Positions 22,341 through 58,784 of a stretch of 64,000 bases of DNA are shown piece after piece. The DNA is taken from the NCBI GenBank assembly GCA_945874665.1, contig CAMCHJ010000008.1, positions 3,880-67,879 of the forward strand. Reading direction: 5' to 3'. The notes under the pieces were generated by a model. It was not told the origin of the DNA and did no database searches. It was given only the letters and a program-made list of their open reading frames with translations. Origin of the DNA: Chitinophaga pinensis. GTDB lineage: Bacteria > Bacteroidota > Bacteroidia > UBA7662. A program made the position numbers and the translations under genes. Position 1 is the stretch's first letter; every line of letters begins with the position of its first letter.

Positions 22341-22475
22341 CCCCCCTTCGGCAAGCTCAGGGACCGCCTTCGACCGGCGGGCCCTTCGATGAACTCAGGG
22401 ACCACCTTCGACAAGCTCAGGGACCGCCGTCGAACCCCAGGGACCAGCTTGGATGCTTCGAACAACTCAGCAAGC
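22341..22475 (+). repeat. tandem array of ~22-bp repeat TTCGAYAARCTCAGGGACCRCC (locus 1, ~5-6 partly degenerate units)
   Basis: Directly visible, for example TTCGACAAGCTCAGGGACCGCC at 22407-22428, and begins right after the SDR stop codon. The six-frame ORFs here (FDKLRD../SLSLSK..) are artefacts of the repeats. Confidence 0.85.
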
Positions 22476-25695: not shown

Positions 25696-25721
25696 ACACG
25701 GAGGTCACGGAGGACACGGAG
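25696..25721 (+). repeat. 3x tandem CACGGAGG(N) motif flanked by T-runs
   Basis: aCACGGAGGtCACGGAGGaCACGGAGt with T8 on each side; seen directly. Confidence 0.7.
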
Positions 25722-25730
25722 TTTTTTTTA

Positions 25731-25907
25731 GACCGCCCTTCGACAAGCTCAGGGACCACCTTCGATGCTTCGATAAACTCAGCAACCGCAACTGCGTTCT
25801 CCGCGTCCTCCGCGGTAAAAAAAACCGAACACCGCCCTTCGATAAACTCAGGGACCGCCCTTCGACAAGCTCAGGGACCACCTTCGATAAACTCAGGGAC
25901 CGCCTTA
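25731..25907 (+). repeat. tandem array of the same ~22-bp repeat TTCGAYAARCTCAGGGACCRCC (locus 2, 5-6 units)
   Basis: Units at 25739-25760, 25761-25790 (degenerate) and 25839-25904 (three intact units), interrupted by a 40-nt insert with a small hairpin CCGCG-TCCTC-CGCGG. The last unit abuts or overlaps the stop codon of the HDAC-like gene. Confidence 0.85.
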
Positions 25908-53467: not shown

Positions 53468-53469
53468 CA

Positions 53470-53511
53470 ATGAAACCCGTATCGCCGCAGGCGATGCGGG
53501 TTTTTCATTTT
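53470..53511 (+). terminator. hairpin (likely terminator of the tRNA cluster), founding member of a local hairpin family
   Basis: TGAAACCCGTATCGCC-GCAG-GCGATGCGGGTTTTTCA near-perfect inverted repeat followed by TTTTCATTTT. Confidence 0.65.
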
Positions 53512-53807
53512 AGCGCGCGTCTGCGCCGCCCCCAGCGGTGCAAGCAAGCGCTAAAATGAAAAACACGTTTCATACGCGCCAGCGTATGAACGGGTTTCAT
53601 TAGTCCTATCCCCCCAACAAGATGGGCGAGCAACGCGAGTCAATCTTGCCTCCGGCCCTCACCACAGCGCGCTTCTGCACTGCGCCCAGCAGTGCAAGGA
53701 AGCTGGAAAATGAAAAACCAGTTCAGCTGCGCCAGCAGCTGACGGGTTTCATTAGTCCTCTTCCCCCCTTCAAGATGGGCGAACGCAGTGAGTCAATCTT
53801 GCCTCCC
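53511..53807 (+). repeat. two tandem copies (period ~155 nt) of a 142-nt element, each with a conserved outer stem ATGAAAAAC/GGGTTTCAT and a covarying inner stem
   Basis: Copy A is 53511-53652 and copy B is 53666-53807. The inner stems are CGTTTCATACGC-GCCA-GCGTATGAACGG in A and CAGTTCAGCTGC-GCCA-GCAGCTGACGG in B: same loop, different but still complementary stems. The shared 3' part is ..GGGTTTCATTAGTCCT.TCCCCCC..CAAGATGGGCGA.C....GAGTCAATCTTGCCTCC. Confidence 0.8.
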
Positions 53808-55869: not shown

Positions 55870-57318
55870 ATGAGCACATCAGAACAGGACATACTCGAGC
55901 AGATTACCGGCGACGACTACAAATATGGATTCGTAAGCAACATTGAGCAGGACATCATTCCTAAAGGTTTGACGGAAGACACGGTGCGCTTTATTTCTGC
56001 GAAAAAAAATGAACCCCATTGGTTACTCGACTGGCGTTTAAAGGCTTACAAACACTGGCTGGGCATGACGCCTCCCGATTGGCAGAACGTTAAATTCCCA
56101 CCCATTGATTACCAAGACATTAGCTACTATGCTTCCCCTAAAGAAGGCAGCAAACTAAACAGCTTAGACGAGCTCGACCCAGAGATCAAGGCCACTTACG
56201 ACAAATTAGGAATTCCCCTCGAGGAGCAGCTCATTTTGGCTGGAGTGGCTGTAGATGCGGTGCTCGACTCGGTATCGGTGATCACCACCTTCAAAGAAAA
56301 ACTCGCTGAAAAAGGCGTTATTTTTTGTTCCATCAGTGAAGCTGTGCAAGAACACCCGGAGCTGATCAAAAAGTACCTTGGCAGCGTGGTGCCATACACT
56401 GACAATTATTTTGCAGCCCTCAACAGCGCCGTTTTTAGCGATGGTTCGTTTGTGTACATCCCCAAAGGCGTTCGTTGTCCGATGGAATTAAGCACCTACT
56501 TCCGCATCAACGCCAAAGGTACTGGGCAGTTTGAACGCACCCTCCTCATTGCCGAAGATGCCAGTTATGTTAGCTACCTAGAAGGTTGCACGGCACCCAA
56601 GCGCGACGAAAATCAGTTGCACGCGGCAGTCGTTGAACTTGTAGCCATGGAAAGTGCCGAAATCAAGTACAGTACCGTACAAAACTGGTACCCGGGCGAC
56701 AAAGACGGCAAAGGCGGTATTTATAATTTCGTTACCAAGCGCGGTGTGTGCATGGGCAACGGCTCCAAAATCAGCTGGACCCAAGTTGAAACCGGCTCTG
56801 CCATCACCTGGAAATACCCAAGCGTGGTGCTAAAAGGCGACAACAGCATCGGTGAATTTTACAGCGTGGCGGTTACCAACAACCTGCAACAAGCCGATAC
56901 GGGCACCAAAATGATCCACATCGGCAAAAACACTAAAAGTCGCATTGTAAGCAAAGGCATCAGCGCTGGCAAGAGCCAAAACTCCTACCGCGGTCTGGTG
57001 AAAGTGCGCAAATCGGCCGCCAACGCTCGCAACTACAGTCAGTGCGACTCGCTGCTGATGGGCGACAAATGCGGGGCGCACACCTTCCCCTACTTCGAAA
57101 TCAACAACAATGGCGCAACGGTAGAACACGAAGCCACCACCTCTAAAATTGGGGAAGACATTATGTTTTACTGCAACCAGCGCGGCATTTCGCAAGAAGA
57201 TGCGGTGGCACTCATCGTAAACGGCTATGCCAAAGAGGTACTCGACAAATTGCCCATGGAGTTTGCTGTAGAAGCTAAAAAGTTATTGGCCATTTCACTC
57301 GAAGGCTCTGTGGGATAA
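55870..57318 (+). CDS. sufB: Fe-S cluster assembly protein SufB
   Basis: 482 aa, highly conserved SufB sequence. Confidence 0.95.
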
Positions 57319-57327
57319 CACCGACAG

Positions 57328-57359
57328 GGTTCAAAATTCAAAGTTCAAAATTCAAAAAC
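57328..57359 (+). repeat. 4x tandem heptamer TTCAAAR immediately after the sufB stop
   Basis: gg TTCAAAA TTCAAAG TTCAAAA TTCAAAAA ct. Exact reverse complement of the array downstream of the four-helix-bundle gene. Confidence 0.85.
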
Positions 57360-57382
57360 TAGCAAGGAAAAGGGAAAGAACA

Positions 57383-57847
57383 ATGGCTGGCTATATGGCA
57401 TTTGAGGAGACGAAAATTTGGCAAGAGTCACGTAAGCTTGTCAACAGCATCTATTTGGCCATCCAAAATAGTACGGCATTTTCGCAGGATTACGCGCTCG
57501 GAAATCAAATCAAACGTGCAGCAATTTCCATTCCTTCAAATATTGCCGAAGGTTTTGAAAGGTCTACTAACAAAGAATTGATTCACTTCTTATTCATTGC
57601 AAAGGGATCAGCGGGAGAAGTTAGAACCCAGTTATGGTTGGCGAGTGATTTGAACTTCCTGAATAAAAAAGAACTTGATGCTTTAATTGATAAGGTTAAA
57701 ACCATTAGTAAAATGATTCAAGGAATGATTAATTATCTCCAAAAAAGTGAAATGAAAGGCACAAAGTATCATAATGAATTAAGAGAGCCCGAGGCTGAAT
57801 TCCAAGGCCTAGAACACTTTTTCCAAACGAGAGACACGTCTGAATAA
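57383..57847 (+). CDS. four-helix-bundle protein (TIGR02436; the family first described as the ORF inside 23S rRNA intervening sequences)
   Basis: 154 aa. N-terminus ..FEETKIWQESRKLVNSIY.. and ..IPSNIAEGFERSTNKELIHFLFIAKGSAGEVRTQL.. are typical of the family. Inserted between sufB and sufC. Confidence 0.82.
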   Translation: MAGYMAFEETKIWQESRKLVNSIYLAIQNSTAFSQDYALGNQIKRAAISIPSNIAEGFERSTNKELIHFLFIAKGSAGEVRTQLWLASDLNFLNKKELDALIDKVKTISKMIQGMINYLQKSEMKGTKYHNELREPEAEFQGLEHFFQTRDTSE

Positions 57848-57913
57848 AAAAATAGCCTGATAAAAATAAATGGCAACCCTTGAAACCCGTATCCATCGAG
57901 CTTTAAACCTCGC

Positions 57914-57963
57914 ACTTTGAACTTTGAACTTTGAATTTTGAACTTTGAACCTTGAATTTTGAA
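57914..57963 (+). repeat. 7x tandem heptamer YTTTGAA (reverse complement of TTCAAAR)
   Basis: CTTTGAA CTTTGAA CTTTGAA TTTTGAA CTTTGAA CCTTGAA TTTTGAA; seen directly. Confidence 0.85.
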
Positions 57964-58025
57964 CTTCCGCAATCAACTTAGAACAAATAATCAGCAACCC
58001 CTTATACGCTCCGAACATAATTACA

Positions 58026-58784
58026 ATGCTTAATATAAACAACCTCAAAGCGTCGATCGACGACAAACAAATCCTCAAAGGCATCAACCTGGAAGTTAAG
58101 CCGGGTGAAGTGCATGCCATCATGGGCCCGAATGGCTCTGGCAAATCAACCCTTTCAAGCGTTATTGCTGGTCGCGAAGGCTATGAAGTAAGCGGCGAAG
58201 TGTTGTTCAACGGCAAAGACCTACTCGAATTGGCACCAGAAGTACGGGCTTGGGAGGGCATCTTCCTCGCTTTCCAATATCCAGTTGAAATACCCGGTGT
58301 TAGCAACACCAATTTTATGCGTACCTGCATCAATGAGCAGCGCAAATACCGCGGCTTGCCTGATATGGACGCCAGCACTTTCCTCAAAACCATGCGCGAA
58401 AAAGCGGAATTGGTGGAGCTCGACCCTAATTTGATGAAGCGCTCAGTAAACCAAGGCTTCTCAGGCGGTGAAAAAAAGCGCAATGAGATATTCCAGCTCG
58501 CCATGCTCGATCCTAAGCTGGCCATCCTCGACGAAACAGACTCTGGTCTCGACATTGACGCCCTCCGCATTGTGTCGAACGGCGTGAACAAGCTCCGTAA
58601 TAAAGACAACGCCTTTGTAGTGATCACCCACTACCAGCGTTTGCTCGACTACATCATACCTGATTTTGTGCACGTATTGATGAACGGTCAGATTGTAAAA
58701 TCAGGGACCAAAGAACTCGCTTACGAGCTTGAAGAAAAAGGCTACGATTGGATCAAGGCTGAATTGAAAGAAGCCGCCCTATGA
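58026..58784 (+). CDS. sufC: Fe-S cluster assembly ATPase SufC
   Basis: Walker A GPNGSGKST, ABC signature FSGGEKKR, Walker B LAILDETDSGLD. Confidence 0.95.
   Translation: MLNINNLKASIDDKQILKGINLEVKPGEVHAIMGPNGSGKSTLSSVIAGREGYEVSGEVLFNGKDLLELAPEVRAWEGIFLAFQYPVEIPGVSNTNFMRTCINEQRKYRGLPDMDASTFLKTMREKAELVELDPNLMKRSVNQGFSGGEKKRNEIFQLAMLDPKLAILDETDSGLDIDALRIVSNGVNKLRNKDNAFVVITHYQRLLDYIIPDFVHVLMNGQIVKSGTKELAYELEEKGYDWIKAELKEAAL

Follow-up and report, generated by a model that had tools for sequence, protein, structure and literature searches.

A four-helix-bundle gene between sufB and sufC lies within complementary tandem heptamer arrays: a probable intervening-sequence-type cassette in an mRNA operon

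Between sufB and sufC lies a small S23p-family gene, in a 64,000-nucleotide stretch of Chitinophaga pinensis DNA (GenBank assembly GCA_945874665.1, contig CAMCHJ010000008.1, positions 3,880 to 67,879), hereafter called the window. It encodes a 154-residue protein of the family known from intervening sequences (IVSs) of 23S rRNA, and it is bracketed by two tandem heptamer arrays that are complementary to each other. The unit consists of a tandem array, a short leader, a PF05635 open reading frame (ORF) and a complementary tandem array. We consider that it is probably an IVS-type gene cassette residing in an mRNA operon, with arms that most plausibly act in RNA. As a class, such cassettes are apparently undescribed.

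The ORF matches PF05635 (8.4e-35, 119.6 bits; cutoff 33.8) and TIGR02436 (4.8e-35, 120.1 bits; cutoff 24). Its neighbours match SUFBD_core and ABC_tran, which bears out the original prediction, made from the letters of the window, of a 154-residue TIGR02436 gene between sufB and sufC. Tandem Repeats Finder places period-7 arrays at only two sites of the whole window: 57330-57357 (4.0 copies of TTCAAAA) and 57914-57966 (7.6 copies). Read directly, the 5' array consists of TTCAAAA, TTCAAAG, TTCAAAA and TTCAAAA(A) at 57330-57358; the 3' array, at 57915-57963, of three CTTTGAA followed by TTTTGAA, CTTTGAA, CCTTGAA and TTTTGAA. The four TTCAAAR and seven complementary heptamers first proposed are present; the 3' start lies at 57915 and not 57914, and the motif is YYTTGAA, given the one CCTTGAA. 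The arms had also been called exact reverse complements: at best, they pair over 28 nt with 96% complementarity. Even so, with 559 nt between its arms, the pair is the top-ranked inverted repeat (I1) of the window. The two-unit pattern TTCAAARTTCAAAR, allowing one mismatch, occurs nine times, always inside the two arrays, against 0.32 expected; none of 100 shuffles reached nine, and a chance origin of the arrays is rejected.

The 5' array begins 11 nt after the sufB stop codon. By description, both arrays belong to the intergenic heptamer tandem repeats (simple sequence repeats of the short tandemly repeated repetitive, STRR, type), with at least three tandem 7-nt copies in a non-coding spacer. 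Rfam gives no match in window 57000-58300 and has no family for the arrays. The sufB-sufC interval contains no terminator-like site; a scan for sigma-70 promoters and intrinsic terminators, which does not model Bacteroidota promoters, found nothing above shuffle expectation. By eye, the 3' array fits the Bacteroidota -33/-7 promoter (TTTG ... TAnnTTTG) only in part (GAAYTTTG).

In a plain fold of 57300-58000, a 20-bp array stem is part of the minimum free energy (MFE) structure. Summed over registers, the probability of pairing with the 3' array is about 0.9 for every nucleotide of the 5' array, in the 700-nt and in the 1300-nt context alike; the pairing of the 28-nt arms anticipated for an in-silico transcript is thereby recovered. 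Reversing the 3' array brings the arm-arm pairing probability down to 0.00. The arms alone form a predicted duplex of -29.6 kcal/mol, and the summed arm pairing in four relatives with other units is 0.97-1.0.

The same architecture is found across the protein family. We sampled 80 genome loci encoding relatives at 43-56% identity, with 83 family genes, from Bacteroidota, Acidobacteriota, Planctomycetota, Verrucomicrobiota, Chlorobiota/Ignavibacteriota, Omnitrophota, Nitrospirota, Proteobacteria and others. Each flank inverted-repeat score was obtained by aligning the 200 nt upstream with the reverse complement of the 200 nt downstream. A score of 30 or more is reached by 66% of the PF05635 genes that could be scored (80 in all) versus 1.2% of 254 control ORFs from the same loci (Mann-Whitney p=5e-29). 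Arrays of period 6-10, predominantly 7, are detected on both flanks of 51 of the 83 genes, on one flank of 24 and on neither flank of 8. In all, tandem arrays with units of 7-9 nt accompany 75 of the 83. Their units vary by locus (GTTCAAG, AGTCCAA, GGTTTCT, TGGTTTG, AGTCRWAA, AACGGTTTA and others), and two cassettes of one genome (L061; L numbers designate the loci compared) have different ones. The two arms nonetheless covary: unit identity is 0.90 with a cassette's own other arm versus 0.645 across loci, over 20 unit types (permutation p<=5e-5). Array packaging is therefore not peculiar to the suf locus. The gene implies arrays in about 90% of cases; the arrays do not imply the gene.

Cassette geometry is regular, with a 5' arm of 32 nt, a 3' arm of 38 nt and a loop of 427 nt (interquartile range 409-453). 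A typical arm holds about 4-5 units (31-32 nt), within a range of 3 to more than 20. The median distance from the upstream stop to the start of the 5' array is 4 nt, and that from the end of the 3' array to the next ATG is 9 nt. In co-directional spacers the ORF is in the sense orientation 55 times and antisense once; this (++) context makes up 55/69 versus 124/195 in the background (p=0.009). Since the inverted-repeat frame is the same on both strands, the 55:1 bias belongs to the ORF, and it fits a promoterless gene dependent on read-through transcription. No rRNA-embedded copy, in an ORF-free (rRNA-like) context, occurs among the 83 genes of the 80 loci.

There are 51 adjacent inverted array pairs in the 80 loci: 32 enclose the family gene and about 13 enclose only 1-112 nt. 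These ORF-less hairpins often share their unit with a nearby gene-bearing cassette and, as cassettes do, they abut the upstream stop and the downstream start. The window has one of its own at 25696-25814, made of three ACACGGAGG and two CGTYCTCCG, roughly complementary 9-mers. Its arms bracket copies of a 22-nt tandem repeat, CCTTCGAYAAGCTCAGGGACCR, which also forms arrays at 22383-22455 and 25831-25906.

Close relatives of the window show the cassette as a discrete insert. SufB orthologs of 89-100% identity retain the same operon; one of them, 98% identical, is labelled a Sphingobacteriaceae metagenome-assembled genome. Orthologs of the small protein (86-100% identity) all lie between sufB and sufC, with both arrays. 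The copy number of the 3' array varies from about 5 to 7 among them, and the 5' array is invariant: 28/28 nt are identical across the window, L003 and L004, at a synonymous divergence of 0.15-0.77 in the neighbouring genes. We built a graded series of sufB-sufC junctions from SufB homologs (Table 1), in which relatives have either the gene with both arrays or none of them. Two loci of this series, L095 and L096, encode the same SufB protein and share 100% identity across about 1.8 kb on the upstream and about 1 kb on the downstream side, the cassette versus a 132-nt spacer being their only difference there. The differing block starts 12 nt ahead of the sufB stop and ends 9 nt inside sufC. Gene and arrays thus swap as one, with breakpoints just inside the flanking coding ends and not at the heptamers. 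Apart from the spacer allele, the two loci are 100% identical throughout a block of about 3.5 kb (L096:2100-5600) that takes in sufB, sufC and a portion of sufD; the flanks of this block are only 77-98% identical, which suggests a recent recombinational import of the suf region.

The alternative spacer of L095 and L091 has its own inverted 9-mer array, of the type found in the ORF-less hairpin of the window. Another spacer (L093:4092-4442, also in L094) contains two hydrophobic ORFs of 58 and 57 residues with no Pfam match. To judge by these junctions, the sufB-sufC spacer seems to be a recurrent landing place of small inserts. The proteins of the three cassettes at this site are mutually 48-54% identical, and their SufB 90-91%. 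In L096, a perfect palindrome (GGTTGGC-TAA-GCCAACC, L096:3938-3965) immediately precedes the 5' array, with the sufB stop in its hairpin loop. Its left half consists of four sufB codons, exactly those recoded synonymously with respect to L095. The window fold also has a sufB-stop hairpin; as a part of the cassette it was rejected, because it is not conserved in L003.

From finished replicons of cultured cyanobacteria and Riemerella we took ten further homologs (29-47% identity). Lineage-typical arrays are present in 9 of these 10 loci (Table 1). Insert ends are best defined in two Nostoc plasmids, with host proteins about 95% identical, which carry different cassettes (GAGTCAG arms and GGGAAAA arms) at adjacent junctions of one operon. 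Each strain shows the other's empty site, TAG-GTT-ATG and TAA-TTT-ATG, with 3-nt stop/start spacers. At the first junction, the outer ends of the two arrays are exactly the ends of the insert. Whether gene and arrays come and go together, with breakpoints at the heptamers, had been named beforehand as a check of the original prediction; the unit stands, and the breakpoints lie at the arrays in the Nostoc pair but not in L095/L096.

Some of these cassettes are wedged into CRISPR-cas operons, each with flanking arrays (L223:1492-1851, L224:1471-1839 and L229:1489-1845). In Pseudanabaena and Anabaena sp. 90, the four-helix-bundle gene separates cas6 from cas4-cas1 (type I-D); in Picosynechococcus, it separates cas10 from cmr3-cmr4 (type III-B). 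They may be the reason why '23S rRNA IVP' is counted among CRISPR-associated domains (PMC10910872). Published data show an array at a further family gene: a supplementary table of Rehm et al. has a 28-nt, four-unit GGGAATC array 6 nt from bccP, overlapping the start of XCC0516. This gene, adjoining bccP, encodes a crystallised member of the PF05635 family, and the array next to it is the published Xanthomonas repeat number 15. As an aside on the Riemerella locus, L221 (NZ_CP081938.1 and three sister records) belongs to Riemerella anatipestifer "plasmids" of about 102 kb that contain lepA and suf genes; this content looks chromosomal, and the plasmid label may be an assembly artefact.

The protein of the window likely starts at the first ATG, 57383, because the ortholog P0017 (MAGYLAFEE...) lacks the second Met, at 57395, where some gene callers place the start (P0002). 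In the AlphaFold2 monomer model, helices 7-24, 33-54, 59-85 and 91-117 have a predicted local confidence (pLDDT) above 90. The model confidently predicts a four-helix bundle for residues 7-117 and a disordered tail from residue 123. The nearest structures found by Foldseek are the pentameric XCC0516 (2GSC; target TM 0.90-0.94, rmsd 1.4 Å) and BT_0352 (2RLD; TM 0.85-0.90), followed by bAvd (4DWL/8UB7); phmmer also matches 2GSC (1.4e-13). By analogy with 2GSC, 2RLD and 4DWL, the protein would be a pentamer. A conserved surface motif, NIAEGFER, is invariant.

Substitution rates indicate that the cassette ORF is under purifying selection. Its ratio of nonsynonymous to synonymous divergence (dN/dS) is 0.10-0.16 (domain 0.10, tail 0.28), with 0.002-0.017 for sufB and sufC, and truncations or frameshifts in some lineages hit the C-terminal tail only. 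The synonymous divergence of the ORF (0.15-0.38; window 57395-57847 versus L003 and L004) is below that of sufB (0.53-0.77) and sufC (0.42-0.46). The cassette is thus younger, or more recently exchanged, than the genes of its host operon, unless its synonymous positions are under constraint. A search for phage carriage in IMG/VR yielded one distant relative only.

The arrays were also sought by themselves, as exact four-fold TTCAAAR in metagenome contigs: at least 120 contigs matched, and 80 loci with a GC content of 0.31-0.68 were analysed. One locus (L146) is a perfect cassette. The scan gave mostly solitary arrays, so arrays specific to the cassette are rejected. Pfam identifies genuine enzymes that solitary arrays interrupt in frame: UvrD helicase, peptidase M50, FolD, PAD_porph, CN_hydrolase, AP endonuclease 2 and DUF2298; a CCG/Fer4 protein is a further in-frame case (positions of TTCAAAR-type examples in Table 1). 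The arrays encode peptides such as SKFKVQSSKFKV, and the GC content of their host genomes is 32-68%. The sense TTCAAAR-type unit is open in all three frames, and its complement gives TGA in all three. That AT-rich 28-mers lie within genes when the genome is rich in GC suggests insertion or expansion by a process peculiar to TTCAAAR-type units.

From these elements a mechanism can be proposed. The cassette fills the junction between the sufB stop and the sufC start as a discrete insert that can be gained and lost. Having no promoter of its own, it would be transcribed together with the suf operon. In the transcript, the arrays would zip into a stem of about 26-28 bp, in any of several registers, and loop out the ORF-containing segment of about 560 nt. 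Such a stem would isolate the insert from the RNA of its host, in the manner of the terminal stem of a 23S IVS, and bring the upstream stop back close to the downstream start. It may also serve, as a long double-stranded RNA, as a substrate of RNase III, whose cut would release a separate RNA bearing the ORF; as first proposed, such an excision might uncouple sufB from sufCDSE. The protein would be a functional passenger with the Avd/S23p fold and not a component of Fe-S assembly.

Several results weigh against an IVS-type cassette acting in RNA. For the whole transcript, the MFE shows no unusual stability (z=-0.87), and the stem is missing from the centroid structure, because the tandem arms pair in many registers. 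The stem is A-U rich and has A-C mismatches. Arm mismatches show no excess of G-U over A-C (59 vs 75, p=0.19), so RNA pairing is not distinguished from plain DNA symmetry; it is from sequence that we infer co-transcription, a stem in vivo and cleavage by RNase III. The sufC start is 62 nt past the 3' array, against a family median of only 9 nt. A few cassettes (Pseudanabaena, PCC 7120, L156) have direct or non-complementary arrays. Among the array-first matches listed, the family ORF adjoins the array in 3/80 loci, a partner array lies on the expected side in 12/80 and on the other side in 6/80, and 36/80 arrays sit in a frame that stays open for 60 codons or more on each side. Heptamer arrays have a life independent of the cassette and are a wider phenomenon. 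That arrays might be widespread without the gene had been named beforehand as an observation that would tell against the prediction, and in part it does: TTCAAAR arrays are common without the gene, many of them in frame in coding genes.

One of the loci just mentioned has peculiarities of its own. The contig of L156 (L156:1200-2540) resembles a tandem or circular assembly of about 1.2 kb, with direct and not inverted TTCAAAG arrays. Its PF05635 ORF (1446-1856) lies in another reading frame within a Hint/intein ORF, at the usual position of the homing endonuclease.

The arrays could instead be terminal inverted repeats or hairpin recombination sites of a DNA-level mobile element with a recombinase encoded elsewhere, their pairing in RNA being incidental. 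The absence of a G-U bias would fit such an element, comparable to MITEs (miniature inverted-repeat transposable elements), REPINs or integron attC sites; so would the discrete insert with array termini in the Nostoc pair, the variable presence of the cassette at the suf junction, and the ORF-less hairpins and solitary arrays of the same genomes. We nevertheless regard it as rather unlikely. No transposase or integrase is found within or beside the cassettes, except for unrelated insertion sequence copies near the PCC 7120 and Stanieria loci, and neither the L095/L096 junction nor the two Nostoc junctions show a visible target-site duplication; the cassette thus lacks the cognate transposase and the duplication by which a transposon or MITE is defined. 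A recombinase would need to recognise at least 20 unrelated units. The 55:1 sense bias and the placement between stop and start point to a dependence on transcription and translation, and the divergent block of L095/L096 runs past the arrays into the coding ends. Still less probable, in our opinion, is that the arrays are binding sites of the encoded pentamer, with about one heptamer per subunit as in TRAP, for autoregulation or protection of its own RNA. The number of units per typical arm agrees with the pentameric state of the solved homologs (2GSC, 2RLD, 4DWL), the homolog bAvd is found in an RNA-protein complex with the reverse transcriptase of a diversity-generating retroelement (DGR; 8UB7 and related entries), and the 5' array is conserved beyond neutral expectation. 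However, units as diverse as GTTCAAR, AGTCCAA, GGTTTCT, GGGAAAA, GGTGACA and GGGAATC face an invariant NIAEGFER motif, the same arrays occur without the gene, and their copy number is far from constant (3 to >20).

Two further explanations concern the protein. Family members are present in suf operons of at least four lineages, namely the window clade, L096 and L097 (sufB/sufC) and Riemerella (sufA-like/sufB), as expected if the position reflected an accessory role in the Suf Fe-S pathway. We find this very improbable and reject it on the pattern of presence and absence and on the diversity of host operons: the gene is missing from the nearest relatives L095, L091, L092 and L098, of which L095 has a SufB protein identical to that of L096; the cassette proteins have diverged far more than SufB; members of the family also lie in cas6/cas4, cas10/cmr3, bccP and hypothetical-gene operons; and some orthologs are truncated or frameshifted. 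An Avd accessory gene of a DGR is suggested by the fold, which matches bAvd, and by a weak match to the bAvd-like PF22296. The latter scores only 23.2 bits for a cutoff of 40, and there is neither a reverse transcriptase nor a template/variable repeat pair among the PAP2, MazG and SufBCDSE neighbours, so that membership in a DGR at this locus is effectively refuted. Finally, the unit might be a non-autonomous element moving via an RNA intermediate, a reading to which we lend little credence. The RNase III cut of the array stem would then free a panhandle RNA with defined ends; the encoded Avd-like pentamer would bind it, as bAvd binds the DGR RNA, and recruit a reverse transcriptase in trans; and the copy would be placed in transcribed operons, at their stop/start junctions, or in hairpin loops of rRNA. 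If this were true, 23S IVSs, ORF-less hairpins and perhaps solitary in-frame arrays would be products or footprints of one process, which would account for the long-noted excess of heptamer repeats in bacterial genomes.

An IVS-type cassette in mRNA operons, the interpretation we prefer, would have several consequences. Among the small gene families called "hypothetical", that of the S23p/four-helix-bundle proteins ranks with the most common in Bacteroidota, Cyanobacteria, Acidobacteriota, Planctomycetota and other phyla, and its members have puzzled annotators by turning up both in unrelated operons and in 23S rRNA. Array packaging would unify these rRNA and operon-embedded copies as one kind of element. 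Closing-off by the arms offers a concrete reason why hosts tolerate the inserts, and the unexplained over-representation of heptamer repeats in bacteria becomes tied to a specific gene family. Guilt-by-association calls for the PF05635 domain, such as its CRISPR-associated listing, may mirror selfish insertion and not function. Cultured and tractable carriers are at hand: Nostoc punctiforme (PCC 73102 pNPUN02, L226), Xanthomonas campestris ATCC 33913, and type strains of Riemerella and Flavobacterium, among the latter F. frigidimaris DSM 15937 (L039) and F. croceum DSM 17960 (L073).

The features are collected in Table 1. From about 4 kb upstream to about 6 kb downstream, the neighbours of the cassette in the window are PAP2, MazG and SufBCDSE. 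At 53469-53806, just downstream of the minus-strand PAP2 gene, stand 1.9 copies of a 153-bp unit (80% matches). Inverted repeats are nested in this repeat, one with 33-nt arms separated by 5 nt and one with 25-nt arms separated by 83 nt.

Table 1. Features of the window cassette, sufB-sufC junctions of relatives (with SufB identity to the window), cassettes of finished replicons, and solitary in-frame arrays.
Feature or locus	Coordinates	Strand	Array units or spacer	Context or evidence
sufB, upstream host gene	55870..57318	+		PF01458 SUFBD_core 1e-76; PF19295
5' arm, tandem heptamer array	57329..57358	+	G + 4x TTCAAAR (+A)	Tandem Repeats Finder
PF05635/TIGR02436 four-helix-bundle gene, 154 aa (S23p / 23S rRNA IVS protein family)	57383..57847	+		Pfam, TIGR02436
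3' arm, reverse complement of 5' unit	57915..57963	+	7x YYTTGAA	Tandem Repeats Finder
sufC, downstream host gene, SufC-type ABC ATPase	58026..58784	+		PF00005 ABC_tran
L091, SufB 96%			247-nt spacer, no TTCAAA arrays	No gene; same PAP2-MazG-sufB synteny
L092, SufB 95%			82-nt spacer, no arrays	No gene
L093/L094, SufB 93%			551-nt spacer, no arrays	Two unrelated small ORFs
L095, SufB 91%			132-nt spacer, no TTCAAA arrays	No gene
L096, SufB 91%			4x GTTCAAA + ~11x YTTGAAC	Cassette; same SufB protein as L095
L097, SufB 90%			4x ATTCAAA + 4x TTTGAAT	Cassette
L098, SufB 89%			79-nt spacer, no arrays	No gene
Riemerella			GGTTCAA	sufA-like gene / sufB
Nostoc ATCC 53789			GGGAAAA	Operon of hypothetical genes
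Geminocystis			GGGAAAA	
Anabaena sp. 90			GGTGACA	cas6 / cas4
N. punctiforme			GAGTCAG	Operon of hypothetical genes
Stanieria			GGCAGAA	Divergently oriented neighbour genes
Picosynechococcus			AGGAGATA	cas10 / cmr3
Pseudanabaena			AAAGCTA, mostly direct	cas6 / cas4
Solitary array, L117	3761-3788		TTCAAAR type	In frame
Solitary arrays, L131	4407-4434, 6997-7024		TTCAAAR type	In frame
Solitary arrays, L110	1273-1328, 2310-2344		TTCAAAR type	In frame
Solitary array, L167	4382-4409		TTCAAAR type	In frame
Solitary arrays, L175	2453-2480, 3218-3245, 8651-8678		TTCAAAR type	In frame
Solitary array, L133	4278-4305		TTCAAAR type	In frame

Several known systems resemble parts of the cassette. Short intergenic 7-nt arrays, often just upstream of start codons, have been described as cyanobacterial STRR, Xanthomonas GGGAATC, Nostoc GGGGAYT and Beggiatoaceae TAACTGA repeats; those of Xanthomonas include 70-75 convergent inverted pairs. 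The heptamer-repeat papers interpret such arrays as elements of translation or G-quadruplexes; the S23p/four-helix-bundle gene goes unmentioned in them. The arrays described here differ in being paired, complementary and placed around one gene family. Full-text literature searches found no earlier description of operon-embedded copies with flanking repeats, in line with the original prediction: in a corpus that mostly leaves out subscription journals, no paper ties the S23p family to flanking tandem arrays, bar the 5' heptamers of Coxiella.

Repetitive extragenic palindromic (REP) sequences and REPINs with their REP-associated tyrosine transposase (RAYT), and the Correia and enterobacterial repetitive intergenic consensus (ERIC) MITEs, are likewise intergenic inverted repeats co-transcribed with operons, form hairpins in mRNA, and have the same repeat on copies with and without a gene. 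Correia or ERIC MITEs in mRNAs are processed by RNase III. The cassette, however, has no transposase: RAYT belongs to the Y1 type, and PF05635 is a bundle of helices and not an enzyme. The arms of the cassette are tandem microsatellites whose unit varies by cassette, without a genome-wide consensus. Contrary to integron cassettes, there is one cassette per junction, with no integrase in the flanks, and arms stand on both sides in place of a single 3' attC. The bAvd proteins of DGRs share the pentameric four-helix-bundle fold (4DWL, 8UB7); they are also small and basic, and work bound to a structured RNA. They have only about 7% sequence identity with the protein of the window, the locus of which has no reverse transcriptase, template or variable repeat.

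The closest parallel is the 23S rRNA IVS carrying an S23p ORF, known from Leptospira, Coxiella burnetii, Xanthomonas and Brucella. In both, terminal inverted repeats make up a stem of about 28 bp with a PF05635 ORF in its loop, and ORF-less versions exist beside ORF-bearing ones. The host RNA differs: contrary to an IVS in helix 25 or helix 45 of 23S rRNA, the gene of the window lies between the protein-coding sufB and sufC of a polycistronic mRNA. Both arms are overt tandem arrays here, and RNase III processing is something that we infer. The IVS of Coxiella is 428 nt long, versus a median cassette loop of 427 nt, and has two to three tandem GACAGAT heptamers directly upstream of the S23p ORF; RNase III makes its 5' cut at the first of them, within the 28-bp terminal stem, and the ORF is reported to be decaying and untranslated (PMC4990558), in contrast to that of the window, which is under purifying selection. 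Its 3' arm would be complementary to these heptamers. Altogether, the IVS-like architecture first proposed for this locus holds, and Coxiella shares with it tandem heptamers of variable copy number, there placed at an RNase III cut site.

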